From a virus (lineage: Duplodnaviria > Heunggongvirae > Uroviricota > Caudoviricetes), in IMG/VR virus record IMGVR_UViG_2609459769_000010: a DNA stretch of 20,229 nt; one strand, written 5' to 3'. The notes under the pieces are model-generated. The model was not told the DNA's origin, made no database searches, and saw nothing but the letters and a program-made list of their open reading frames with translations. How positions within the stretch are numbered: position 1 is the first letter of the stretch; each line of letters begins with the position of its first letter. A program made the position numbers and the translations under genes. Shown here piece after piece: positions 1-20,229 of the stretch.

Positions 1-930
1 ATGAAGATATCTCTTGTAGTTCCTGTCTTCAATGAAGAAGAAGCGATACCAATTTTTTATAAAACGGTACGTGAATTCGAAGAATTGAAGTCATATGAAG
101 TGGAAATTGTTTTCATAAATGACGGCAGCAAAGACGCTACGGAGTCAATTATTAATGCTCTGGCTGTTTCAGATCCTCTAGTTGTTCCGCTGTCATTTAC
201 ACGCAACTTTGGTAAAGAACCAGCATTGTTTGCAGGGTTAGACCATGCAACTGGCGATGCCGTGATTCCAATTGATGTTGACCTGCAAGACCCGATTGAG
301 GTTATTCCTCATCTTATTGAAAAGTGGCAGGCAGGTGCTGATATGGTACTTGCTAAGCGCTCTGACCGTTCTACAGATGGAAGACTGAAGCGCAAGACTG
401 CTGAGTGGTTCTATAAACTTCACAACAAAATAAGCAACCCAAAAATTGAGGAGAACGTCGGAGATTTCCGACTAATGTCTCGAGGAGTTGTGGAAAACAT
501 TAAATTATTACCAGAACGCAACCTGTTCATGAAAGGAGTATTAAGCTGGGTTGGTGGTCGTACAGATGTTGTTGAATATGCTCGCGCTGAGCGCGTTGCA
601 GGAACAACTAAATTTAATGGGTGGAAATTATGGAACCTGGCTCTGGAGGGTATCACTAGCTTCTCTACATTTCCTCTGCGTATGTGGACTTACATCGGTC
701 TTTTTGTTGCCGGTTTGGCATTCATTTATGGTGCATGGATGATTTTAGATAAGCTGATATTTGGAAATGATGTTCCTGGGTATCCATCAATTATTGTGTC
801 TATACTATTTTTAGGTGGTGTGCAGCTTATAGGGATCGGTGTGCTTGGAGAATACATAGGAAGAATATATATTGAGTCAAAAAACAGACCAAGGTATCTT
901 TTAAAGGAAAATGACTGTGAAAAAAAGTAA
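1..930 (+). CDS. gtrB: Bactoprenol glucosyltransferase GtrB (GT2 family, O-antigen glucosylation/seroconversion)
   Basis: 309-aa ORF starting at window position 1. Translation recalled as near-identical to E. coli K-12 YfdH/GtrB and Shigella phage GtrB ([17 protein letters not shown]..., DGSKD, C-terminal TM helices). gtrA would lie just upstream, outside the window. Confidence 0.93.
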
Positions 931-2686
931 TTTAATTATAATATCAGCATTAGCTATAGTATATTGCTTGCCAATTATTCTTGGCACATCATATTATTAT
1001 GATGATCTTTTCCGAGCCTATTCAGGCTATAGCTCATGGAGTTCAGATGGAAGACCGTTTGCTAATACCTTTTATCAAATACTGACCTTTGGTCAAATGA
1101 TGCCTGATACGTTTCCACTTGCACTTATAGTATCAATTTTTATTTTTGCATATATCGGGAGCAAGCTTGGTAGTTTCTATGGTAAGATTAATTCATACAC
1201 TTACTGTTTTGCCTATACAACGATTATAATGTCACCATTATTTATATCTAATTTATTATTTAGATATGACTCTGCATTTATGATGCTTGCTATATCGGCC
1301 TGCATTGTTCCATACGTAGTTACTTTAGATAAAAAAATAAATATAGCTTTCGGCACTTTGGCTGTTATTTTTTCATTTGGACTTTATCAAGCAGCAGTTA
1401 GTATTTTTATTGCTTTTGCTGGTATAGAGCTATTTATAAATAGTTGTTTTCATGATGCAAAAAAAACCATTAAAAACTGCCTCATTAGAATAATGCAACT
1501 AGCTGTGGCTTATGTTATTTACTCAAAAATCATACTTGGATTTTTTGTAATTAACGACTATTTCAAAGAATTTAACAAACCTATATCACTAAGTGCAGAT
1601 GGTATATCGCGGTTAATGGCAAACATATCATCTTCTATGCATAACATAATATTGATGTTGAATTCTGGATTCTTAATAGCTGTAACTCCAATAATATGTT
1701 ACTCCCTTTTTTGTATTGTAAAGCACTCTATAACCAACAAGAAACCATATTCTATAATTGGTTTTATTCTGGCATTGGTTGCTTTATCTATTGCAGTTCC
1801 GGGTATAGCGATATTTGGTGAGAAGCCAATTTTCTATCCAAGAATTTATATTGGTGTTGGTGCATGTCTTTTCTTCATATGCTTCATACCAGTTATGTTG
1901 AATGGGAATAAGAAGATAACTATTGCTGTGCAATTTATTTTCATTTTTTATCTATTTGGCATGATTAACGCAACAAGCAATGCGGTTAGATCTGACGTTG
2001 AGTTTCAAAAAGCAACGTCTCAGAGAATTATAAACATAATTGATAGCAGTTACCTTTCAATTAATCATAAAGTTGTTATTCTTGGTCAACTTCGCCAGTC
2101 TCCATTATCATACATCAACTCATTATCATATCCATTGATTAACATATTGTCGCCGCAGCACTTTATCAATGGTTATGACGGTGGTCGATTCGTACTTATG
2201 CATGAGGGGCTTGACAATATTGAATATCCGGATATTCAAGAGCAAAGCAAATACAGAGATGCAATTAAAAATTCAAAACCAATATTCTCAAACAATATTT
2301 TTTCAATATATAACATTAATTCAACTACGGTCATATCTTTTGAGAATACATTATATGACGAAGCGAATAATAAGATGATACCATATACATTTAAGAGTAA
2401 CATGGTAAGTAATGCTCATTACGGTGATAAGTATTTCTATGCTTGCATTTCAAATACAGTATCCCCTACTCTTAAAAGAAACGAGTGGTACTATCTACTT
2501 ATTCACAATAAAGATGGTTCAGTCATTAACAGAAATTTTTTCGCTCCTTATTCAATGCATAATGACGAAAGTACATGCGTTAACACTCAATGGAAGGAAC
2601 CTGTTTCGTTAGAAGATATAAACTCAATTGAGTTTGGAATTTACAACATAGAAACAATGCAAAGGCGGTTAGATCTAGGCTCATAA
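911..2686 (+). CDS. GtrC-type serotype-specific O-antigen glycosyltransferase, polytopic membrane protein with long hydrophilic C-terminal domain
   Basis: 591-aa ORF overlapping the gtrB stop by 20 nt, with AAGGAAA RBS. N-terminal ~370 aa are very hydrophobic (multiple TM helices); C-terminal ~220 aa are hydrophilic. Strongly AT-rich compared with the rest of the window. Sits where the third gtr gene is found in P22/SfX-type conversion modules. Confidence 0.6.
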
Positions 2687-2690
2687 TTTT

Positions 2691-2714
2691 AAGGCCTCTG
2701 TTGAGGCCTTTTTA
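2691..2714 (+). terminator. Rho-independent terminator of the gtr operon
   Basis: AAGGCCTC-TGTT-GAGGCCTT hairpin followed by TTTT, 5 nt after the gtrC stop. Confidence 0.6.
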
Positions 2715-2893
2715 CGTAATATTTAAATTCCTATACATTCCGTTACCATACCACGCTTGATCTGGATGCCATGGTTTCAGCGCATATGAATTCGTCTATA
2801 TTTATTAAAAATTTCTCTGGATATGCGGTAGATAGTGCTATTTATTCACATAATAAAATAAGAATAGATTTACTCGTATATAACTATGTTTGA

Positions 2894-2931
2894 TAGAATT
2901 AAGAAAACGGCTCCCTGTAGTGGAAGCCGTT
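2894..2931 (-). terminator. Possible terminator downstream of tailspike
   Basis: AACGGCT / AGCCGTT 7-bp stem (12-nt loop) followed on the - strand by TTTCTTAATTCT. About 80 nt past the tailspike stop. Confidence 0.3.
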
Positions 2932-3007
2932 ATAGTGCTGCAGTTTAAAGACAGATCAACCAATCCTTAACTGATCGGCATTGCCGGATGACCGGGCTTT
3001 TACATTT

Positions 3008-5212
3008 TTAGAATGCTTTCAATGTAGAGGCTTCTGAACCAGCACAGGTAAGAACTATCTTGTAGTACCCGGTTTTAGCCCCCCCTGAAACTCCTGACCA
3101 GTCAAAATTTAACTGCAATATAGCTCCGTTTTCATTTGGCGCACCGTAATTAACACTAGGTGCCCCTGGAGTAGAGATATCGAACATTGGCATATTTGCC
3201 GCCACTGAGTTTGCATTATACGAGTTGGTATTTCTGGCATCATTTCCTTGAGATGCAGTGATTACAGGCCATTCACCACCCAGAGCACTCTTTTGTACCA
3301 CCTCTATCGTTGCAGGTCCATTTCTCAACAACACTCCCTCGTAATACACATTTCCATGCGTACCACCGGTTCCATGTATTTGTATAGTGGCGAATCCGCA
3401 ATCAGCATAGTTGACTGATGGATCGAACGTCTGATGATACATATCAGATGGCAATGGCATAACAACTGCTGATAGTGTTGCTGGGGATGGCATTGATGTT
3501 CCTGTCCCAGTATTCATTGCAGGAACCCTGAGCTTTATTGATTCGGCTTTTCCACGAATGTTGCTGTATCCATCACCATGTGTATTGATCATATGAACAG
3601 GCCTAACAATTACTCCTTGAATAAACGCATTGCCATCAGCTATTTTTGCGAATGTAATTGTTTTCCATCCTCGACCAATCAATTGTCCGGCGTGCTTTAC
3701 CATTCCTGTGCTATTGCCGCCTCTATTACGAAGTGGCCATCCATATTGTTTTCCTTGATAACTTAGATTGCTACTAACTGGATAATTCAAATCGTAGTAT
3801 GGTGGCTTCGTTCCTGTGTAATTCTCAACTGGATGCTGAACCAGCATGCTTAAAACAACATCATCCCAACTGCCAATAACATCTATCTCAGCAGCTTCTG
3901 CATCAAGATAAAAGCTGTACGACATTACTGCGCTACCAGTTATCGGGAACTGTCCAGTTATTCGTTGTTGAGTATATGCAGCTCGATCAAAGACAATATT
4001 GAAATTGTTAGTAGGCAAGGCCATGCCAAAATGATCAGACATCATAGTGGGCCACATCATGATTTCTGATGATATTGGTTTGTACGATGGAGAAAGACCG
4101 CCAGCCATTAACATTGATGCGATTGCCTCACCCATTCGCTGATACCCCAATGAGTTAAAGTGGGTGCCGTCGCTTTGCACTACACCCTGTGGCATGTTGA
4201 ACTGAAGCTCGCCAAGGTTAATATGTGCGCAGTTATATAGTGTGGCTAAGTTTTTGACCTGAAATGCATATGACTGTTGGTAGTTAGCCAAGTTAAAATT
4301 GTACATACTAAAACTACCTGACGCAGTTTGACAAACAAGAACACCCATCCCCCAATCAATAAAGCGACGTATCAATTTTTCCATATACTCAAGGTACTCA
4401 TTGATGTCGCCCTCATTTGCATCGTTAATCGCATACATTAAAATTGCCAAGTCGCAATTAGGGTTTGTTTGCCAGTCAGGATTCTCATAGGCATTTTTTG
4501 CCGTGAAGCCTGAAATTGCCCTTACAGTTATTGATGTTGGCGCCCCTGATTGTTCCTCAAGATATGATCCAAGACGAACAGGATACGTAACTGTGGCATG
4601 AGTTGCGTTATCAGGGCTTCCTTCAACAATATCTGTTGATGAAATATCATATCCAGCAGTTATTGAATCTCCCTGACAAAGAATTTTTAATGGACTTCTT
4701 GATTTAATCAGGTAGTTTACATTAAGTAACATCCTTATATTTCTTGAACCATAGTTAGCAGAATCATTAGCAATATTACCTTTCGCATTATCATCAAGGG
4801 CTTCCTGAATCGTCTCTCCACTAACAGTGCCAATCATTCCTGCCCCAGTGCTTGATGTTAGTCTTTGTTCTAACTGATCGGGATCATACTTCAGCACATT
4901 TGGAAAATAGAACTGCTGCACACCGTACGCATCATAAACAGCCATAGAATGGCCTTGCACAGTTACGAATTTGGCAATCTGTCCGTTATATACCGGATAT
5001 CCGGCAGCATTTATAACGATTGGTTGTGACACTTGAACATGAGTGCCGTCTTCTCGTTCCAGATATACTGGAATCTGGTTTTCAGGATTTACCGGATCAG
5101 TGTCAATTTTACCGATATAAATTTTTCCATTGGCTACGGCTTTAAAAGAACGAGCCATAGTGAAGAGTTGCGAAGGCATCGATACGATCACATTGGCTGT
5201 AATGTCTGTCAT
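3008..5212 (-). CDS. Tailspike protein: P22 gp9-like N-terminal head-binding domain fused to SGNH/GDSL esterase domain and C-terminal beta-rich domain
   Basis: 734-aa ORF with GGAG RBS. First ~115 aa ([41 protein letters not shown]...VLKYDPDQ) match the P22 tailspike head-binding domain as recalled. Downstream carries SGNH hydrolase blocks: GDSIT (aa 181-185), INDAN (GxND-like), DGTHF (DxxH). Confidence 0.85.
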
Positions 5213-5270
5213 TTAATTTGCTCCAGATACAATGAATCGCCGCAGCGTGGCCACGGTGAATTTTGGGCAT

Positions 5271-5293
5271 AAAAAAACCCAGCCGAAGCTGGG
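5271..5293 (-). terminator. Rho-independent terminator between ejection-protein genes and tailspike
   Basis: On the - strand: CCCAGC-TTCG-GCTGGG followed by TTTTTTT. Confidence 0.6.
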
Positions 5294-5343
5294 TAGTTGC
5301 GTTGGTTATCTGTCAGTAGTTATGTGCTTATTTAATTATTTAT

Positions 5344-7188
5344 CTATTGTTCTGCTGTAATTTGGCTTGAAAGTATAGGGCGTATCGCATTTGCAGCATT
5401 ATTTAACGCTCTTTCATAAGCTGGCGTTCCTGCTTTGGTGTTTGCCAAACGAAGAAGCATATTCCTTGCGGCTTTGGACTCATACAAACGCATCATTGCA
5501 CCAAAACCAGCCTCAAGCCCCATTGATACACCAAGAGTCGCAGTTGCGCCAATCGTCCTTATCCTGTTGGCTTGCGATTGCCCCGTCTGAGTTACTACAT
5601 TTGCGGTGTCTGACCTTGCTGTTTGCTGTAGAACTTCATGAAGAGCATCAAGCTCTTTCATGTGCTTTCCAGAAAAAATAGTGTTGTAAATTTCACCGCC
5701 TGACTGAGATTTCAGCTTATTAACTTCAGTGATGAACTTGGCTGGAGAGTCACCGGCCTTTTCCGCTATTTTGCTGACGTAAGCTGCACGCATAGCATCT
5801 TTCCCTTTATCATCCAGTGCGCTCCAGATTCGTTTCACGTCAGATGGTTTTCTGCTTAATACAACGGTATTTATAAGTTCAGGACTGGCTTCACTGCTTG
5901 CCTTGTTGAGCTTGTTAGCAATGTTTTTATTAAGCACCTTATTATAAACGTTTGCATAATCGGAATTTGCTTTAAGGTATTTTGCTGCGTCTGATGCACC
6001 GAGGTTTTTAGCAACTGCGTTACGAAGGTCTTTTGACATTGCATTCTCTACCATATTGGTAGCTGCTTTTGCCTGGTTGGGGAAGACCATAGCATCTCCC
6101 TGAACATTAGATCTAAATGCTGTTCTGTGCTGACGCAAGAGATCAAACGTAACATCCAAATCAGTTGCAGGGTTTGCTAATTCTTCACGTAGGTTACGCA
6201 AGGATGTAAGCAGGCTTTGATTGGCAGACGTCCCAAGCCGTTCCTGTCTTGCGATCGCTGTATTCAGAGCATTCATGGTATTTGTGGTATCAACTGCGGC
6301 ATTACCCATTTTATTGGTGACGTCATTGATAACAGCGCCAGCGGCATCCTTCCGCCCCCTTAACGTGGTGGTCAGAGATTTCACCACATCATCAGGGTTA
6401 TACTCACCAAAACGGTCAAAATAATTGCTTACCAGTTTACTACGCGTTGCATATTGCTCCGCTCGCTTTGAGCCTGTCCCGAGCAAAGCACCCTCGGCAT
6501 CCTGAGTAAGGCCACGAGTGAAAGCATTTTTCGGCGGGATAACATCAGATGTCATTGGTGTCACGCCCATCGATTCTGATGTGGCAATTTTCTTCGCCAC
6601 TTCTGGCGCAATATCACCTTTTATAGCCGTTATTCCACGCCCTATTCCCTTTGCTGCTGCGGAAAGAACACCCTGAGCGGCAAGGTTAACTCCGGCATTT
6701 TTAGCTGCATTTTGTGCGAAATCGCCTTTCTGATTTGCGGCCTCTGCCAGTGAGCCAATAGCCATGCTTCCTGCCGTTCCAACTCCTGGAACTAAATACC
6801 CACCAATTGTTTCACCGGCTTGTGCGTATGGGTCTGTCGGTTTGTCTACTGGACGATAAACATCATCCAAAACTTTTGGCCCACCAAGCCCCTGACTGAT
6901 TGCATTAATCAGACTTGCGCCACCCTGCAATACGTCAAATGGTATGTTTACCAGACCACGACCAGCCTGTTCTGCAATTTGCCCTGCACTTTGACCACCA
7001 GTGAGCCAATCGCCAGCTTGTTGCATCAATGATGGTTCGTCCCGTGTTGGTGCATTATTGGACTGATTAACTGTTTGTTGCTGAACAGCCTGACCAGCAA
7101 AATACTCATCAATGGCGGTGCCAATATCTTCGGTGCTCGTACCATCAGGAAAGGTAAATGTCTTACCGTTTGCAGTTACTTTCATCAT
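5344..7188 (-). CDS. Ejection (injection) protein, P22 gp16-like
   Basis: 614 aa (P22 gp16 is ~609 aa by recollection). Last gene of the gp7-gp20-gp16 series. Start ATG overlaps the upstream stop (ATGA). Gly/Ala-rich, low-complexity composition typical of E proteins. Confidence 0.7.
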
Positions 7189-8591
7189 TCCACCGTAAAT
7201 TGAATGCCTGATTTTGAGGTATATGATCCAACCTGATTCCGTGGTTCTCCTGAAGGTGTCGAATCTTGTGCTGGCGCTGCGTCAGTATTCATTGACATAT
7301 ACCGCTTAACGGCACTCCCCAATGATTCACCTTTTTTAACATCCAACCCCAATATCTGACCGCCATTACGCGATTGTCCAGGGTTGCCATTCGCGCTCAT
7401 CCACTCGGCTTTAAACTCATTAAACTGCGCGTTTCGTCGCTCAAGGTTTGCCATTGCATCAAGCCATCTTGCGACCGTCTCAGGGTTATCCATGTCAGTT
7501 GGCGCACCCTGTCGAACGATCTCAACGTCTTTATCCGTTGCTGGGCCGGGAGGTAGGAATTTAAGAACCTGACTGTTAACAAGGGCATTTTGGCGAATGC
7601 GCAAATCACGCAATGTTGTATCGCTTCCGGTAAGTTTTGCGAACATGTTCTGTGCGTTACCGAACAAACCTGTCGTTGGTTTTTCTGCTCTGAACTGTTG
7701 AGCAAGCGCACTCATAGAATTGGCTGAGTTTGATGATGCTGTAGCATTGTTTACAGCCGTCTCGATGCCTTTTTCCATGTTTACTGACAGCTTAGGTGCT
7801 TCGCTAATCAACTGCTGAGCCTTTTCCTGCGCTTGCTGCATCTTAAACCCGAACTCTTGCTGATCCAGAGCCAAGCGTTGTGCTGCGATATTGTGCCCAG
7901 TCATTGCTGACTGATAGGAAAGGTTTTGCCCTCTCGCCTGAAGTGCTTCTCCAGCCTGATTGCTGCGGATTGTCTCTGCCAGTCTGCCTCGGTCAATTTC
8001 ACGACCAGCCATCTTGTCCTGAACATTGAAGTAATCAATCGGACCAAGAGCAGCCATCCCAAGGTGATCAACAAACTCACCAAATCCTGAAGGATTCTGC
8101 TGATACATCTGAGCAACGCTGTTAGGGTCAACACCGACGCGAGTCAGTTCCTTGGCGTTGTTTTGCAGCCATGATTGCATTGCTTCTGGAGACGATGACG
8201 CAAGGCGTGCGCCAGCCGCTAAGGTGCCGATAGAATTGCGCTGGTCTTCATCAATGAATCCCATGCCTTTACGAACGGATTCAATCTGGTCTGGATATTG
8301 AGTAGCCAACTGACGCAAAGCACCGCGATCACCAGACGCATAAGCATTAGCGTATGCCTGCTGAAATTCTTTCTGCCGCTGAGCCTGCTTTTCCTGCTGA
8401 AACACCCCCGCAATACCTGAAAGGCCTTGCAAAGCAGTCAGCCCAACATTGTTAGCGCCTGAACGCTCAATATCATTGTTCTGTCTGATAAGCTGAAGCG
8501 TATTGCCGATGTCATTTACGCTCGGAGCGTTTGAGTTGACACCACCGATACCAGCCAACAATCCGCCATTTGTTCCTTGCCAAGTAGCCAT
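7185..8591 (-). CDS. Ejection protein, P22 gp20-like
   Basis: 468 aa (P22 gp20 ~471 aa). Gene order and size match the P22 E-protein cluster. Confidence 0.7.
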
Positions 8592-8600
8592 GATTACCCC

Positions 8601-9296
8601 TTAAAACAACGATCCAAGCAGGCCAAGTCCGCCGCCAATTGCCGCACCTAATCCAGTGCCAAGTCCGGGAACAATAGAGCCAAGAGCAGCGCCAGTCATA
8701 GCCCCTGAAGCTCCACCGCTAATTGCTGTCTGAAGACCTGATGGTTTGTTGGCATTAGCAGCGGCAAGAGCTGCGCTTTGCTGTGCAATGCTGCTCATGT
8801 TGTTGGCGTACGTCTGCCCGGCGTTTGCCTGACCTTGCAGAGCACCAAGCCCAACGTTTGCCAGATTGTTGTAATTGCTCATCTGGTTTGATAACCACGA
8901 CTGACCGAGAGTCGGAGCAATCGTAGCCAGTTGATTGCTTGTGGCTGTCGAACCAAGTCCGCCAGTCGCCTCCGCAGCAGCAAGACTCTGGTAACGAGCC
9001 TGACCTGCAAGGTCTTTATACTGCTGAGAATTGTAATACTGATTAAGTGCCTGCCCCTGACCTTCTAAACTGGAAAGATTCTGAAGCTGGTTAACATACT
9101 GCTCCGCAAGCGGCGTGAACGGAGCAAGGTTTTTCATGATCGTCTGCCACTGCTGATTTTGCAGGTCTGCGGCATACTTCTGGGCTTCTGCTGCATACTT
9201 TGCGCTTTTATCAGAGCTACCACCTTTCCCGCCTTTTTCAGGGCAATAAGGTTCCTCGCCGCGCAGTTTTCTGCCCAGCTTAAATGCATATAACAT
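8601..9296 (-). CDS. Ejection protein, P22 gp7-like
   Basis: 231 aa (P22 gp7 ~229 aa), with glycine-rich C-terminus. Position between the gp14-like and gp20-like genes. Confidence 0.65.
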   Translation of the reverse strand: MLYAFKLGRKLRGEEPYCPEKGGKGGSSDKSAKYAAEAQKYAADLQNQQWQTIMKNLAPFTPLAEQYVNQLQNLSSLEGQGQALNQYYNSQQYKDLAGQARYQSLAAAEATGGLGSTATSNQLATIAPTLGQSWLSNQMSNYNNLANVGLGALQGQANAGQTYANNMSSIAQQSAALAAANANKPSGLQTAISGGASGAMTGAALGSIVPGLGTGLGAAIGGGLGLLGSLF

Positions 9297-9298
9297 GG

Positions 9299-9757
9299 CT
9301 ATCTCCCGTGATTCAGGAAGTCGATTAGTTCTTCACGTGTGGCGCTGTAAAACGTCACGTCATCCACGCCTTTGAAGTATTTCTTGATGGTTCCTACACG
9401 CTTAAGGCCAATCATCGCGCAATACATCTGACCGTGGCGGAATTTGCGTGCAGCGAACGATGTGACGCACTGAACGGTGGTGTTAGTCAGAATGTATCGC
9501 CAGAACGCCAGCCCGATTTCCTTGCTGAATCCGCGAATCTCTGGCAGGTACATGGCGTGGCAATCGAATGTCAGCGGCTGAATCTCCTGATAGTAAACAA
9601 TGCCGCCGAACTGCCCGTGCACGTTCACCTCAAAGTAACGGCAATCAGGTTTGTAGTCGTATCCATCACCGTTGTTGCTCCCGGCGATAATGTCAGGGTG
9701 ATTTCCTACTGCTTCGATCAGGTCGATGTTTCGCGTTGGTTTGAACTGAATCATCAC
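9299..9757 (-). CDS. P22 gp14-like virion protein
   Basis: 152-aa ORF between the tail needle and gp7-like genes, the position of gene 14 in P22. Start overlaps the tail-needle stop. Confidence 0.5.
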
Positions 9758-10602
9758 TGCTCCGCGATTATCTTGATGGTTGTGGCAGTAAACGCCGCAC
9801 CATTTGACTGAATGGTTAACGTGCTGCCATTTGTGGCAAGAAAGCCGTCTTTATCCACGCTGAAGAACGTAGCTAACAAGATGTTATCGGTTGTTGTCGC
9901 CGAGTTGCGACTGCTTACCAGTGTGTCAGGAACAGAACCGGAAAATGTTAGTTGCATTGACCTGTTGGCGGTTCCACTGGGCCACGTCCCGACAATCGAC
10001 AACTTGAAGAACAAGGTTTTGTTCTCGTTGAACACAACCATCTTGTTGTTAACGGTGTCGAAGAATGGTGCCAACGTGCCGGATGACGGCGTGAGCGTTT
10101 TCAGTAGGCTAACAAGGTTGGTCGGCGCTGTCGGAATGGTTACTGATACGCCAGAGTAAACAACCTCTGACTTCTTGCGCGTGGTTGCATACTCCAGAGC
10201 ATCAATGCGCGATTCATGATCTGAAACCTGCGACTCCAGCGACTGAACTCTTGTGTCAAGCGACGCAATATCGCTTTCATTCTGAGCTATTCGTGTTTCA
10301 TGTTCCTGAAGAGTTGATTCTGCCTGGCTGATTCGCTCCTCATGATTAACAAGCGTTGCTTCCGCAGCAGAAATTCGCTGCTCATGGTCAGCGAGAATCA
10401 CATCCTGCTCATCGTTCCTGACCTGTGCATCATAAGCGCCTTGTCCGGCCTCGTTGGCCTTGTTCGCCACATTACCAACATCAGCACCCTGTGCAATAAC
10501 GTAAAGCAGATACGACTGCGAGAAGATATTGCGTGGAAGGATTGATGTATCGAGCCGCGTCGCCTGAACAATAACAGGTGTATTGAGATTCGAATCCGCC
10601 AT
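9754..10602 (-). CDS. Tail needle protein (P22 gp26-like) with C-terminal knob domain
   Basis: 282 aa. N-terminus [43 protein letters not shown]...[18 protein letters not shown] matches the P22 gp26 N-terminus as recalled. Followed by a trimeric coiled-coil segment with a 14-aa periodic HExRI repeat, then a ~140-aa C-terminal domain (Sf6-type knob architecture). Confidence 0.85.
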
Positions 10603-12024
10603 TACTCAATCCTTATCTGAGCGCCAGACAGAGTGACAGGTGACTTCGTGATAACGCGCAATTTGAAGCCAACATTTTTCCTGATGCGCCCTACCCGCTT
10701 CCACAAAACGCGTTTGTCGTAAACGAACGGTTCATTCTGCTCAATCATCTGCTCACGCCCGTAATTGATGCCGTCAGTGGTTGCAGAGAGAAAAAGGCGG
10801 TCAGCATACTGCGCAACTCCAGTTGAAGATTCAACCTCAAGGTCGAACACCCGGGCGTTATCCGCTTTGAACAACGGAGTAAACAGCAGGTGTTCCTGTT
10901 GAAGCCCATACTGGCTGCTGATATCGAACTGCAATTTCCCGGTCACCGATTCCAGCTTATCGCCGCACGTTATTTGATTGCCTTCGTAAATGAAGTCGAT
11001 AGCGCGGTACACATCGTCATACAGGCCTGTTTTCAACACACACCATTGCGGACCATTGGCGCTTGAAGATGCGTCGTATACGAGGACATGGCGCGGAAGA
11101 TGGATAATCAGCAACTCATGCGCATCAAACCGCAACGATTCCATCACACCATCAGCCAGTTCATCAGCAGTGTAGGAGCGGAGGATTTTCTCAATGCTCG
11201 CGCTGGCGATTGGTGACACCTGACCGGAGCCGATGATGTATACAGATGGCGCACCCGTTGCCGGATTGCTGATGAACGCATACGAATCAGCAAACGGCGT
11301 TTTGCAGTAAGTCCCGGCGATGCCTTTTTGCACCATCAGTGATGGCTGTGCGACATACAAAGCAGCACCAACGGTGGTTGCGCCAGTCAGGGAGAAATAT
11401 TCAATAGTCGATGAACCAAAGCAGACGATGAAGTCTCGCCATGTCCCGATACCGATGATGCCGTCCGGCTGAGACTCGGCACGATATTGTGCGCTGTAAC
11501 GGTCAGGATGCGATTCGTCTTCAAGGTCAGTGATAAACCATGAATCAGTGCCGTCTTTTGACCACGCATAACGCCCACGTAAGCGCGTAATGTCACGAAC
11601 CGAACCTAACTCATACTGAGTGAATCCGCTGTCTGTAGGCCAGTTTGAGACTGTTTTAACCGTGCCATCATAGCGATACTCGACCAGTTGACCATTAACA
11701 CCTACCGCCTGTGATGTCCGACCATGCGCCATTGATACACGACCACTTCCGGCAACATCACCGACTTCACTTTCTCCTTTGTACAGCTTGCCGCCACACA
11801 CGCGATAAACAGCACTCTGCGCCATGTTGTACTCAACTCCGCGCGATACGCCGTTCACATCAGAACGTTTGGCAATGCCCGGGAATGAGCGAAGATAGTC
11901 TGTAAACACCAACAAGGCGCTCTGCGAACGCCCTGTTATTTGCTGCGGCTACCACTAATCCCTCAGGTGAATCAGGGTGTCGAATCTCTTCTTTTTCCTG
12001 GTATTTCTTACGACGTTTTGTCAT
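10602..12024 (-). pseudogene. P22 gp10-like tail hub/head-completion gene, reading frame interrupted (two frames)
   Basis: The 437-aa gp10-like frame (10602..11915) has no ATG; an in-frame TAG lies at 11949-11951. A strong AGGAG RBS plus ATG at 12024 opens a second frame (MTKRRKKYQEKEEIRHPDSPEGL...) that stops at 11860, overlapping the first. Span from 12024 to the gp10-like stop is ~473 codons, close to the P22 gp10 length (~472 aa, recalled). Frameshifted gene, sequencing indel or deletion fusion are all possible. Confidence 0.5.
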
Positions 12025-12058
12025 AATTACTCCTGTGGATTGATCCAGTCTTTCTACA

Positions 12059-12337
12059 TCAGGCCTCAAAACTGTTGCAGCAGTCTTGAGGCTTTTCTTT
12101 TGTCAGCACCATGGCTACTTTCTTTGCCAGCTCCGCTAATTCCTCGTCTTCAACACCCCACTCCAGCACAGCCAGAAGCATGGCCATCTTTGGGATAAAG
12201 CTGTCTTTCCATCGCGAAATTTGCGATTCATTAATCCCTAACGCGTCGGCAACCTTTCGCTGACCACGTACAGCAATTCGATTCAGGATGTTGCTTGTAA
12301 TTGCATTCGCTTTCTTGCGAGTACTTGTAAGTTGCAT
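12059..12337 (-). CDS. cII: Transcriptional activator CII
   Basis: 92-aa product (MQLTSTRKK...SQISRWK...MLLAVLEWGV) aligns with lambda CII (QISRWK, MLLAVLEWGV). The 5' leader ...TTATCTAAGGAAATACTTACATATG is essentially the lambda cII leader. Confidence 0.85.
   Translation of the reverse strand: MQLTSTRKKANAITSNILNRIAVRGQRKVADALGINESQISRWKDSFIPKMAMLLAVLEWGVEDEELAELAKKVAMVLTKEKPQDCCNSFEA
12291..12330 (+). promoter_or_regulatory. Candidate CII-dependent promoter (pRE-like) TTGC-N6-TTGC motifs
   Basis: On the + strand inside the 5' end of cII: TTGCTTGTAATTGC (perfect TTGC-N6-TTGC) and TTGCGAGTACTTGT. Lambda pRE sits in the same place and orientation. Confidence 0.3.
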
Positions 12338-12416
12338 ATGTAAGTATTTCCTTAGATAACAATTGATTGAATGTATGCAAATAAATGCATACACCATAGG
12401 TGTGGTTTAACTTGAT

Positions 12417-12446
12417 GCCCTTTTTCAGGGCTGGGATGTGTAAGAG
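12417..12446 (-). promoter_or_regulatory. nutR (boxA + boxB) N-utilisation site
   Basis: - strand reads GCTCTTACACATCCCA-GCCCTGAAAAAGGGC: boxA-like GCTCTTACA and a boxB hairpin identical to lambda nutR boxB. Lies between cro and cII. Confidence 0.8.
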
Positions 12447-13443: not shown

Positions 13444-13475
13444 CAGCCTCACAACTCTAAAACACACAACAATAA

Positions 13476-13505
13476 CCCGACCTTAGCGTCGGGTTTTCTT
13501 TTTCC
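13476..13505 (+). terminator. Rho-independent terminator after cI
   Basis: CCCGAC-CTTAGC-GTCGGG hairpin followed by TTTTCTTTTT. Confidence 0.55.
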
Positions 13506-13568: not shown

Positions 13569-13597
13569 TTGACTCGATAAAGTACAAATCGTACTAT
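13569..13597 (+). promoter_or_regulatory. pL promoter with embedded operator (oL1-like)
   Basis: TTGACT - 17 nt (CGATAAAGTACAAATCG) - TACTAT. Contains the inverted repeat AGTAC-AAATC-GTACT and matches the pR element (consensus AAGTACAWATCGTAYTAT). Confidence 0.55.
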
Positions 13598-13636: not shown

Positions 13637-13667
13637 TGCTCTTAAAAATTTAGCCCTGAAGAAGGGC
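13637..13667 (+). promoter_or_regulatory. nutL (boxA + boxB)
   Basis: TGCTCTTAAAAATTTA-GCCCTGAAGAAGGGC: boxA-like plus the exact lambda nutL boxB hairpin, upstream of N. Confidence 0.85.
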
Positions 13668-13777: not shown

Positions 13778-14104
13778 ATGGATGCACAAACACGCCGCCG
13801 CGAACGTCGCGCAGAGAAACAGGCTCAATGGAAAGCAGCAAATCCCCTGTTGGTTGGGGTAAGCGCAAAACCAGTTAACCGCCCTATTCTCTCGCTGAAT
13901 CGCAAACCGAAATCACGAGTAGAAAGCGCACTGAATCCGATAGACCTTACGGTGCTGGCTGAATACCACGAACAGATTGAAAGCAACCTGCAACGTATTG
14001 AGCGCAAGAATCAGCGCACATGGTACAGCAAGCCACGCAGTGAAATGGGGGTGACTTGTGTTGGTCGCCAGAAAATGAAATTAGGCAGCAAACCACTTAT
14101 TTGA
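13778..14104 (+). CDS. N: Antitermination protein N
   Basis: 108-aa product MDAQTRRRERRAEKQAQWKAANPLLVGVSAKPVNRPILSLNRKPKSRVESALNPIDLTVLAEYH..., near-identical to lambda N over most of its length. AGGAG RBS. Confidence 0.9.
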   Translation: MDAQTRRRERRAEKQAQWKAANPLLVGVSAKPVNRPILSLNRKPKSRVESALNPIDLTVLAEYHEQIESNLQRIERKNQRTWYSKPRSEMGVTCVGRQKMKLGSKPLI

Positions 14105-14885: not shown

Positions 14886-14989
14886 TACGAATAAGCACTG
14901 TGTATTCATTCCAACGAGTGAATACACGGAGCAATGTCGCTCGTAACTAAACAGGAGCCGACTTGTTCTGATTATTGGAAATCTTCTTT

Positions 14990-17879: not shown

Positions 17880-18170
17880 ATGAAAACAATGAAGCTAAAC
17901 ATCGACCTCGGCAAATACGTTATTACCGGAACAAAACACGACCTGATTCTTAGTGAAAGAGGAATTATCAAAGAAGGCGAGAATGCAGGGAAAGAAACAC
18001 TAAGCCGTATCGGTTATTACAGCAAGTTTGAGCATCTGGTCAAAGAGTTATGCAACCGTGAAATCCTGTTATCTCAGGCGCAGACGCTACAGGATATTCA
18101 GCAACATATCGAGACTTTAGGTGTGTCACTTAGCATGGCTATTGACCAGTTCGTGGAGAGTAAATCATGA
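17880..18170 (+). CDS. Hypothetical protein (96 aa)
   Basis: ATG at 17880 preceded by GAGGA ([14 protein letters not shown]...). The ORF-track start at 17727 overlaps the upstream gene and lacks an RBS. Confidence 0.5.
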
Positions 18171-18334
18171 GAGGACTTGCATACAATACCGGCATTCTTC
18201 CGGCAGAAATGATTATTCGCCAACGCGTAAAGCCAATGCCATCGAGAGAGGAATTGCTTAAGAGAAATTCTTTTCCGTCAGTAAATCAAAACAAATATCT
18301 GAATGCGATGTGGCGCAAAGGAGGCAAGCAGTGA
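18167..18334 (+). CDS. Small hypothetical protein (55 aa)
   Basis: ATGA overlap with the upstream stop and GTGA overlap with the downstream start (translational coupling). Below the ORF-track cutoff. Confidence 0.3.
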
Positions 18335-18630
18335 GTGTATATCTTATTGATAAACGTCGACGTGGGCAACAAATACCACCTGTAGGAATTCCGAATCACA
18401 CATGGTTTTGCGTACTTGATATCGATGGTATGGATGCGTTGGTTGACACTCTTCATTACTGCGATACCGCAACAGCTACTCCGGCGAAAGCAAAGAAAAT
18501 GGCTGCTCTGATAGAAAACTGGACTCCACCTGATGGTTGGTGCAATGGGAATGATCGAGATTGGCATGAAAAAATGAAGGGCTATATCTGCGATTTTTTA
18601 CGTAAATGCAACGGATTCAGGGTGATGTGA
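18331..18630 (+). CDS. Hypothetical protein (~99 aa)
   Basis: GTG start preceded by AAGGAGG at 6-nt spacing; [33 protein letters not shown]... Confidence 0.45.
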
Positions 18631-18631
18631 C

Positions 18632-19186
18632 ATGAGCAAAATTAACTATCAGGCACTGCGTGAGGCGGCAGAGCAGGCAATGCATGACTACTGGGGGTTT
18701 GATGCGGACCTTTTCCATGAGCTGGTAACACCATCGATTGTGCTGGCACTACTGGATGAACGGGAAAGAAACCAGCAATACATCAAACGCCGCGACCAGG
18801 AGAACGAGGATATTGCACTAACGGTTGGGAAACTGCGTGTTGAGCTGGAAGCCGCAGAGAAGCGCAACGCAAAATTACAAAGCGAGAATGCATACATCCG
18901 CAACCGGTTCAAAGAGCTGGACCTGTTAATCGGGAAAAACATTCTGGTCATGCAGGCTGCGATTATCGAATGGCAGGAAACTGGCGACGCTAAAAGCGGA
19001 CTGGCATGGATTTATAACACACTGTTTGGTCCTGGCGAATTGCCGGACGAATCTGAGAAAGATGCTCAGGCCTACTTTAATCGCAAATATGCACCGATTG
19101 ACGAAAAGCTTATGGCGCTTCACAAGTGGTTTTGGGAACAAAGTGAAGCCGAGCTCGCCGCTGGCATTCGCATCAAAGGAGAGTGA
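18632..19186 (+). CDS. Ea22-like early protein (coiled-coil)
   Basis: 184-aa ORF packed against its neighbours. Central coiled-coil (KLRVELEAAEKRNAKLQSENAYIRNRFKELD). Position and architecture resemble lambdoid ead/Ea22 proteins; assignment from recollection only. Confidence 0.4.
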   Translation: MSKINYQALREAAEQAMHDYWGFDADLFHELVTPSIVLALLDERERNQQYIKRRDQENEDIALTVGKLRVELEAAEKRNAKLQSENAYIRNRFKELDLLIGKNILVMQAAIIEWQETGDAKSGLAWIYNTLFGPGELPDESEKDAQAYFNRKYAPIDEKLMALHKWFWEQSEAELAAGIRIKGE

Positions 19187-19187
19187 T

Positions 19188-19739
19188 ATGAGCGCTATAA
19201 CCGATAAGAAACAGTATCCAGGCGAGCAATATCTTAATGAGCTAATCACCAACATAGAGTTTGCTGCAAGGGCTCCAGTTGAAGTCGTGAGAGCGATGGC
19301 AGCAGAGCTACAGAAGCGGCGCGAAGCTGATAGTGCAGAACCTGTAAGCCAAACTTACAAGTTGCCTCCCCTGTCATCCAACGAAGTAAACGACGCGGCA
19401 TGGAAATTACACAACATGCTGACTGAACACGGCCCGCTAAATGGGCGTCAGTTCAACAATCTGAAAGGTTGCTTCTATGAGGCATTAAAGGTCGCAATGC
19501 GCAACTATCCGGTAACTCCGGATGGTTGGATAAGCTGTAGTGAGCGAATGCCGGATACCAAAACAGCCGTTCTTGTTGCCGTGGAGTTTGACAGGAAAGG
19601 TGACTGGCGAATGAAATGGGCGACTTACATCCCGGGGCATCCTGACGCTAATGATGGGTGGATAATTCCTGGTGCGTCGTGGAAACCGTCACACTGGATG
19701 CCGCTACCAGAACCGCCGCAGGAGGTTAACCGTGGCTAA
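19188..19739 (+). CDS. DUF551-domain phage early protein
   Basis: 183 aa. C-terminal W.SCSERMPD...VLVAV...GW...HWMPLPEPP resembles the DUF551 signature common in lambdoid b-region proteins. Confidence 0.45.
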   Translation: MSAITDKKQYPGEQYLNELITNIEFAARAPVEVVRAMAAELQKRREADSAEPVSQTYKLPPLSSNEVNDAAWKLHNMLTEHGPLNGRQFNNLKGCFYEALKVAMRNYPVTPDGWISCSERMPDTKTAVLVAVEFDRKGDWRMKWATYIPGHPDANDGWIIPGASWKPSHWMPLPEPPQEVNRG

Positions 19740-19771
19740 CCTGCAACTTGCCGTCAAAGGTGAATAACAAT

Positions 19772-19826
19772 CCTCGCATTCGCGGGGATTTCTTTTATCT
19801 GAACTCGCTACGGCGAGTTTTATTTT
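19772..19826 (+). terminator. Tandem Rho-independent terminators
   Basis: CCTCGC-ATTC-GCGGGG + ATTTCTTTTAT, then CTCGC-TACG-GCGAG + TTTTATTTT. Confidence 0.5.
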
Positions 19827-19839
19827 ATGGAGATGATAA

Positions 19840-20007
19840 ATGCACTTCCGAGTCACAGGTGAATGGAATGGAGAACCATTCAACAGAGTTATCGAAGCAG
19901 AGGACATCAACGACTGCTATGACCACTGGATGCTATGGGCGCAGATAGCACATGCAGACGTAACCAATATTCGAATTGAAGAACTGAAAGAACACCAAGC
20001 CGCCTGA
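19840..20007 (+). CDS. Small hypothetical protein (55 aa), terminator-flanked
   Basis: GGAG RBS + ATG; MHFRVTGEWNGEPFNRVIEAEDINDCYDHWMLWAQIAHADVTNIRIEELKEHQAA. Preferred over the overlapping ORF-track call 19748..19948, which has no RBS. Confidence 0.35.
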   Translation: MHFRVTGEWNGEPFNRVIEAEDINDCYDHWMLWAQIAHADVTNIRIEELKEHQAA

Positions 20008-20025
20008 TGGCGGTTTCTTTTTTCC
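20000..20025 (+). terminator. Rho-independent terminator
   Basis: CCGCC-TGAT-GGCGG followed by TTTCTTTTTT. Confidence 0.55.
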
Positions 20026-20037
20026 TGGAGAATTAAG

Positions 20038-20229
20038 ATGACCGATACCAGCCTGATTCCTGAGAAAGAAGTGATGAACAAGCTCGGTGTTTCATCACGT
20101 CAGACAATCTGGAACTATACCAAACGGCACGGATTTCCGAAGCCAGTCAGAACCCACCCCAAATCATACCTTCGTGAAGCTGTTGAAGGGTGGATTCTTA
20201 ACGGTGGCGTTAATCAGAAATGCTCCTGA
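20038..20229 (+). CDS. xis: AlpA-family excisionase/transcriptional regulator (Xis)
   Basis: 63-aa ORF with GGAG RBS, ending exactly at the window end. Winged-helix AlpA-like sequence (...KEVMNKLGVSSRQTIWNYTKRHGFPKPV...). Last gene before the expected integrase. Confidence 0.6.
   Translation: MTDTSLIPEKEVMNKLGVSSRQTIWNYTKRHGFPKPVRTHPKSYLREAVEGWILNGGVNQKCS

Follow-up and report, generated by a model that had tools for sequence, protein, structure and literature searches.

A copy of the lambda orf55 cassette, with three terminator-like hairpins, at the distal end of a lambdoid early-left operon

The window analysed here is the whole 20,229 nucleotide (nt) stretch of IMG/VR virus record IMGVR_UViG_2609459769_000010 (Duplodnaviria; Heunggongvirae; Uroviricota; Caudoviricetes). 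Among the loci compared, the window is IMG/VR contig UViG_2617270950_000015 (locus L007). The feature under study is a small gene near its right end, a homolog of lambda orf55, together with the hairpins that flank it. Two tandem hairpins, t3 and t4, lie upstream of the gene and a third, t5, lies at its 3′ end; the next gene downstream is AlpA/excisionase-like. An initial annotation, made from the sequence alone, had described a 55 amino acid (aa) open reading frame (ORF) with its own ribosome binding site (RBS), bracketed by tandem terminators upstream and a strong terminator downstream. The ORF and its RBS are as described, and the scan and folding reported below recover three terminator-like hairpins in the arrangement proposed, all of them predicted structures. 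Coordinates are collected in Table 1.

Table 1. Features of the orf55 cassette, of the early-left operon and of the remainder of the window, with corresponding genes in related loci. Positions are those of the window unless a locus is named.
Feature	Position	Strand	Remarks
orf55 homolog	19840-20007	+	55 aa, ATG to TGA (stop 20005-20007); acidic; predicted beta-beta-alpha-beta fold
Shine-Dalgarno sequence GGAGA of orf55	19829-19833	+	6 nt 5′ of the ATG; read from sequence
t3 hairpin and T-rich tail	19769-19800	+	stem loop 19769-19790, 9 pairs, tail TCTTTTATCT; -13.1 kcal/mol, z score -5.3
t4 hairpin and T tail	19801-19828	+	stem loop 19801-19820, 8 pairs, tail TATTTTATGG; -11.9 kcal/mol, z score -4.9
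t5 hairpin and T tail	19997-20023	+	stem loop 19997-20016, 8 pairs, tail CTTTTTTCCT; -13.0 kcal/mol, z score -3.5
AlpA/excisionase-like helix-turn-helix gene	20038-20229	+	first gene of the integration module; PHROG 66, E 1.9e-8
pL-like promoter, TTGACT-17-TACTAT	13569-13597	+	consensus scan, 9/12 positions; activity inferred
nutL boxB GCCCTGAAGAAGGGC	13653-13667	+	identical to the lambda nutL boxB pattern (0.01 chance matches expected)
Lambda-type N antiterminator gene	13778-14104	+	Pfam N36, E 1.5e-26, 92 bits
nutR	12417-12431	other strand	boxB pattern search
cII	12059-12397	-	directly followed by the truncated gene-10-type ORF
Gene-10-type 'Phage_stabilise' ORF, N-terminally truncated	10602-11915		matches profile positions 37-469
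Needle, gp14, gp7, gp20 and gp16 genes			after the 'Phage_stabilise' ORF
Tailspike with GDSL esterase domain	3008-5212
GtrB/GtrII O-antigen glucosylation genes	1-2686
Two recurrent other slot occupants (99-103-aa Cys-rich; 114-aa)	L009 2154-2465; L108 1576-1920
Convergent integrases in relatives	L001 3021-4199; L002 3360-4538; L108 2170-3348; L111 3972-5150; L103 3124-4320

The sequence 19765-20022 shows ~97% DNA identity to lambda, HK022, HK140 and APC_JM3.2, and the homology ends abruptly on both sides. Because the block is so nearly identical in these phages, its presence here is not a chance resemblance, and the ORF is indeed conserved at this position in related phages, a point that the initial annotation had proposed to check. 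In a profile search the translated product matches PHROG 676 over residues 1-55 of 55 (E 4.5e-40). In tblastn, lambda J02459 29121-29285 and phage 434 'ORF55' are each 96.4% identical to it at the aa level, and homologs are found in 86 phage records. Searches of Pfam and NCBIfam assigned the product to no family.

Lambda orf55 (lambdap35, NP_597778; NC_001416 29118-29285) shares with the gene described here 96% protein identity, the same RBS, the three hairpins and, in the pL operon, the final position ahead of the excision gene. The two differ in their surroundings. Lambda has xis downstream and ea8.5 upstream, whereas the window has the AlpA-type gene downstream, a DUF551 gene and an 11-codon remnant of an ASCH-domain gene upstream, and a defective P22-like prophage as the host element. 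The similarity to gene HK140_031 of phage HK140 (JQ086370) extends further, to the upstream flank, the cassette and the AlpA-like gene, with 98% DNA identity over 540 bp; in HK140 a convergent integrase follows. Only scattered base changes separate these sequences. HK140 is a complete, viable phage. Placement at the distal end of the early-left operon, beside the integration/excision module, is common to lambda, HK022, HK140, APC_JM3.2, CUS-3 and Yersinia. Judged by sequence comparison, the cassette is a copy of the known lambda orf55 with the predicted terminators t3 to t5. The gene, its position and the three hairpins are already described in GenBank annotations and in two papers.

An ORF of only 55 codons, without a Pfam or NCBIfam family, might be a chance reading frame between regulatory hairpins. 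The conservation pattern of orf55 refutes this explanation, to which we assign a negligible probability. Among 50 unique ORF sequences from related loci, the ratio of nonsynonymous to synonymous polymorphism (pN/pS) is 0.09, and variable sites at codon positions 1, 2 and 3 number 7, 2 and 19. The PHROG match covers the full length of the protein, and diverged homologs keep the reading frame, whose conservation in homologous regions the initial annotation had made a test of its proposal. These homologs also retain the motifs TGxWNGEPF...EAEDExD...W and a net charge of -4 to -8. The product itself is a 6.5 kDa protein with an isoelectric point of 4.7 and a net charge of -7, and its AlphaFold model is a confidently predicted beta-beta-alpha-beta fold (predicted local distance difference test score, pLDDT, 90). 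A HMMER search of 1.84 billion cluster representatives gave 53 hits, mostly fragments or fusions, and thus the family is narrow. Full-length homologs with 40-54% identity are present among these representatives, and homologs at 40-62% identity occur in Yersinia and in further genomes. By these criteria orf55 is a genuine, conserved gene.

A terminator scan of 18000-20229 detected six sites, versus 2.0 +/- 1.3 in shuffled sequence. When t3, t4 and t5 were each folded alone, 0 of 200 shuffles were as stable. With 8-9 pairs, 4-5 G-C pairs each and T-rich tails, all three display the architecture of intrinsic terminators, and the TGA stop codon of orf55 is situated inside the t5 loop. Apart from a few base changes these sequences are those of t3-, t4- and t5-lambda, which are listed as predicted terminators in Table 4 of Bloch et al. 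(2014, PMC4195576). The equivalent of t5 is annotated as a rho-independent terminator in the HK140 record JQ086370.

Variation in the hairpins was compared in 61 unique variants. All 8 pairs of t4 are paired in at least 98% of these, and the one common polymorphism, an A or G at position 19816, changes a U-A to a U-G pair and so keeps the pairing. At the t3 position, 59 of the 61 variants maintain a hairpin of -6 kcal/mol or better. Some display a compensated stem, CCTCG...CGAGG, and others carry at least two unrelated stems (CCGC...GCGG and AACCCGC...GCGGGTT) before the same T tail. The t5 stem is invariant in 82 loci. All three hairpins are directional and point along the + strand; the z score of t5 on the minus strand is -1.2, similar to shuffled sequence. 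Since unrelated t3 stems are swapped and the hairpin and T-run are kept, selection appears to act on structure rather than on sequence identity, and the evidence favours the view that the hairpins are under selection as structures.

Other roles for the hairpins were also considered. A t3-t4 pairing of the attenuator kind was rejected, as both the minimum free energy and the centroid folds keep the two hairpins. It should be noted that the t3 and t4 stems are alike, so that cross-pairing is trivially possible. A weak pairing that masks the orf55 RBS is not conserved with other cargo genes. A search of Rfam with 19400-20229 at E <= 1 returned only two sub-threshold chance hits (a rimP leader and a Leu leader); thus the tandem hairpins are not a known leader or riboswitch. 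A role of t5 as terminator of the convergent integrase gene is unlikely because t5 is weak on the minus strand. As for expression across t3-t5, Bloch et al. (2014, PMC4195576) offered nothing usable.

The cassette has sharp limits. Across 73-82 related loci, identity to the window is >0.9 inside the block and drops to ~0.2 left of ~19762 and right of ~20023. The block is found in more than 10 upstream contexts and in at least five downstream contexts, namely lambda xis, an HK022-type 114-aa gene, the AlpA-like gene, a small membrane-protein gene and an attachment site (att) core. A count of the first gene downstream of an identical t4 plus GGAGA sequence, in 120 IMG/VR loci, gave orf55 in ~84, the 114-aa gene in ~22, a 99-aa Cys-rich gene in ~9, an 83-aa gene in 4 and a 57-aa gene in 1. 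The upstream terminators are thus not specific to orf55, since the same t4 and RBS unit precedes at least five different genes. In Stx2a_F349, t3, t4 and the RBS are followed directly by the 114-aa gene, orf55 is absent, and a t5-like, near-identical hairpin GCCGCTATATGGCGGTTT precedes the AlpA-like gene. In Sf101 a remnant of orf55, its last 48 nt plus t5, is present, and in locus L009 an additional gene is found between t4 and orf55. The mosaic joints fall at a unit made up of the hairpin 3′ arm, the T tail and GGAGA. The comparison shows that such units are also the joints at which alternative small genes change places between lambdoid phages.

Two other occupants of this slot recur (L009 and L108 in Table 1), both encoded behind the same terminator and RBS unit. 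One is a 99-103-aa Cys-rich protein with a CxxC...CxxC pattern. The other is a 114-aa protein, named 'N15 early protein homolog' in one record and 'lipoprotein' in another.

The position of the joints bears on a further explanation, that the hairpins are mainly recombination 'boundary sequences' that persist through module exchange and have little role in termination. The joints lie exactly at the hairpin, T-tail and GGAGA units, the near-identical hairpin GCCGCTATATGGCGGTTT stands before the AlpA-like gene in phages without orf55, and one proposed route to phage mosaicism runs through conserved boundary sequences (PMC3029335). However a pure boundary role does not account well for the swapping of t3 stems with the hairpin and T-run kept in 59 of 61 variants, for the t4 polymorphism that preserves pairing, or for the + strand orientation of all three hairpins with t5 weak on the other strand. 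Linker and terminator roles are also not mutually exclusive. We regard the boundary explanation as a serious possibility, but on balance unlikely.

The + strand of the window from ~13600 is a lambdoid early-left operon. The pL-like promoter is located between an S24 repressor gene and nutL/N, and N is followed by genes for a Rad52-type recombinase, SSB, Abc2, DUF5405, DUF7739, Ead/Ea22 and DUF551 proteins. The early-left and N antitermination context assumed in the initial annotation is therefore borne out by the pL, nutL boxB and N gene found upstream.

A consensus scan of 18000-20229 found no sigma-70-like promoter. Within 130 nt upstream of orf55 the best hexamer pair matches at 7 of 12 positions, and transcription from it would begin inside the RBS or beyond it. 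The gap between the t4 stem and the ATG is only 19 nt and is occupied by the T tail and the RBS. The initial annotation had directed the search for a promoter to 19826-19840; that interval is 15 nt long, is filled by T tail and RBS, and has no promoter detectable in silico. As an RBS is present and a promoter is not, orf55 most likely needs transcription that starts at pL and is antiterminated by N, and the sequence suggests that it is most likely transcribed only by N-modified RNA polymerase, which would read through t3 and t4 into the gene.

Morons, a concept of Hendrix and Juhala, are extra genes with their own promoter and terminator. If orf55 were a true moron, the repressed prophage would express it and the lysogen would gain a new trait. 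Several properties are in keeping with this. As in lambdoid morons, orf55 is a small accessory gene, bounded by terminators, which some genomes carry and otherwise similar ones lack; the boundaries of this polymorphism are sharp (orf55 is absent or a remnant in Stx2a_F349 and Sf101), t5 is predicted to be a strong downstream terminator of its own, and the upstream terminators could isolate the gene from pL. Unlike these morons, orf55 belongs to an early operon, and other genes have the same flanking units. With the whole of 18000-20229 devoid of a promoter-like site, a best upstream candidate of 7/12, and the t4 to ATG gap filled, no promoter of its own was found, and thus orf55 is very unlikely to be a self-transcribed moron. 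In addition, the t4 and RBS unit is common to other cargo genes, and in Yersinia, where upstream terminators are missing, the homolog and the preceding ORF overlap. A true moron is therefore very improbable. Of the initial annotation's independently acquired moron, the cassette behaviour stands, with breakpoints at ~19762 and ~20023, and the strict moron with its own promoter does not.

The presence of pL, nutL and a lambda-type N makes N-dependent read-through, and insulation of the excision gene, plausible. In this arrangement polymerase that is not antiterminated would be stopped at t3, t4 and t5 before the excision gene, so that insulation of that gene would be gated by N. As t5 encloses the stop codon of orf55, t5 could also be masked for a short time by a ribosome that terminates there. 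The N-sensitive terminators of the lambda pL operon are similar, in that they too combine intrinsic-terminator architecture with a place in an operon where N-modified polymerase reads through. Lambda tL1, tL2 and tL3 have been mapped experimentally, whereas t3, t4 and t5 are predicted only.

The initial annotation placed a xis-like gene directly downstream of t5. This agrees with the PHROG 66 match, but the Pfam Phage_AlpA score of 17.8 bits is under the 21-bit cutoff. In the RefSeq records of HK140 and APC_JM3.2 the gene is named 'AlpA family'. In HK140, APC_JM3.2, Stx2a_F349, Sf101 and E. coli LR-60 a tyrosine integrase gene follows on the opposite strand, convergent with the AlpA-like gene, with an overlap of ~20 bp at the 3′ end of the latter. 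A Yersinia massiliensis prophage displays a diverged AlpA-like gene with a convergent integrase and a 35-bp overlap. With the integrase gene convergent, pL read-through would be antisense to int and would not express it. In this lineage t3, t4 and t5 would thus also stop polymerase before an antisense run into the integrase gene, and antisense read-through from pL into int may itself have a regulatory role. The initial annotation had proposed that xis and int are both insulated from pL transcription unless N is active. For the excision gene this is plausible; for int it is misleading, as in the relatives int is convergent and not co-transcribed. The slot, with one terminator and RBS unit before at least five genes and with convergent integrases downstream, yields constructs for testing such effects.

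Taken together, we consider with a probability of roughly 0.78 that the cassette is a copy of lambda orf55, the last accessory gene of an N-antiterminated pL operon, bounded by intrinsic-terminator-like hairpins that also act as exchange joints. Some observations weigh against this interpretation. Terminator-like sites occur earlier in the operon, at 14988, 15311 and 15797, and because of these t3-t5 may be redundant for pL transcripts. In lambda, termination at t3, t4 and t5 consists of software predictions only (PMC4195576). The AlpA-like gene runs to the very end of the window, and the integrase arrangement is inferred from relatives. Finally, distant orf55 homologs lack the upstream hairpins: in Yersinia massiliensis the homolog overlaps the stop codon of the preceding ORF, and in L107, a locus of a metagenome-assembled genome, it begins 13 nt after the preceding ORF. 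Thus insulation is a trait of the E. coli slot and not of the gene family.

With respect to function, the most reasonable guess is that Orf55 binds and modulates a host protein early in lytic growth. In a published model, Orf55, the last gene product of the lambda exo-xis region, is a possible T7 Gp2-like protein, and the essential arginines of Gp2 are equated with Orf55 N43 and R45 (Donaldson 2021, PMC8614690). Orf55 would then be an inhibitor of host RNA polymerase. Gp2 is likewise a small acidic beta-beta-alpha-beta protein made early by its phage, and three Gp2-like 'RNA polymerase inhibitor' entries are present among the weak hits of a BFVD search (E 0.04-0.09). However that search gave no hit at E 0.001 or better, and the structural score of Orf55 versus Gp2 is modest and non-specific. 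At the sequence level no relation to any PDB chain is detectable at E <= 10; a profile search of PDB sequences at that threshold returned nothing relevant, and Gp2 was not listed. The key arginines, which in Gp2 form a pair on strand 3 that contacts the beta-prime jaw, are also not conserved in the Orf55 family: distant members have D or E at position 43 and V, E, H, N or D at position 45. Because N43 and R45 are not conserved in these members, the Gp2 idea remains weak, and we consider it improbable.

A broader proposal should also be considered, in which the hairpin, T-tail and GGAGA units form a selected 'docking' system, the slot swaps small host-targeting genes by short-homology recombination, and Orf55, as its most frequent occupant, is an acidic inhibitor of a host protein. 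This is put forward tentatively and is rather doubtful as a whole. Within it, a component of replication initiation is a candidate target. An mBio paper (PMC9239242) cites earlier work in which lambda orf73, ea22, ea8.5 and orf55 together are linked to inhibition of host replication initiation.

Several observations concern the flanks of the slot. Immediately upstream of t3, at 19733-19768, is the 11-codon remnant of the ASCH-domain gene, which translates as VANLQLAVKGE followed by a stop. The intact gene is located directly 5′ of t3 in APC_JM3.2 and HK022, and the remnant is also found in HK140 and several IMG/VR loci. From the aligned sequences, the deletion appears to join two GTGAAT repeats. 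In phages of the CUS-3 type (L110 2501-2706, and ~31 IMG/VR loci) orf55 and t5 are the last features before the att core, a tRNA 3′ fragment (GGTTCGATTCC) that begins 22 nt after the orf55 stop codon. In this type t5 is predicted to stand as a barrier between early phage transcription and the att site or, after integration, the host DNA.

The element that carries the cassette is a defective P22-like E. coli prophage (window 1-12400), with the truncated gene-10-type ORF, virion protein genes, tailspike and glucosylation genes listed in Table 1. Missing from it are the replication, nin, Q, lysis, terminase, portal and coat genes. A hairpin at 13474-13495, after the repressor gene and before pL, has tails accepted as T-rich on both strands and looks like a bidirectional terminator; lambda has its immunity-region terminator at this position.

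Of 5426 complete E. coli genomes, 2674 match a 301-bp query (19740-20040), and 1951 cover at least 80% of it. Few small genes are as common in E. coli prophages as orf55, and the cassette is in this sense an ordinary finding that carries little weight as a discovery. Lambda-identical orf55 is also found in 16 genome assemblies of unrelated bacteria (L086-L101), including Shewanella, Pseudomonas, Chromatium, Bradyrhizobium, Oceanobacillus, Kitasatospora and Algoriphagus. There it lies on contigs of ~48.4 kb or on small contigs, several of which have names that give ~1-2x coverage. These copies are most likely contamination with lambda control DNA.
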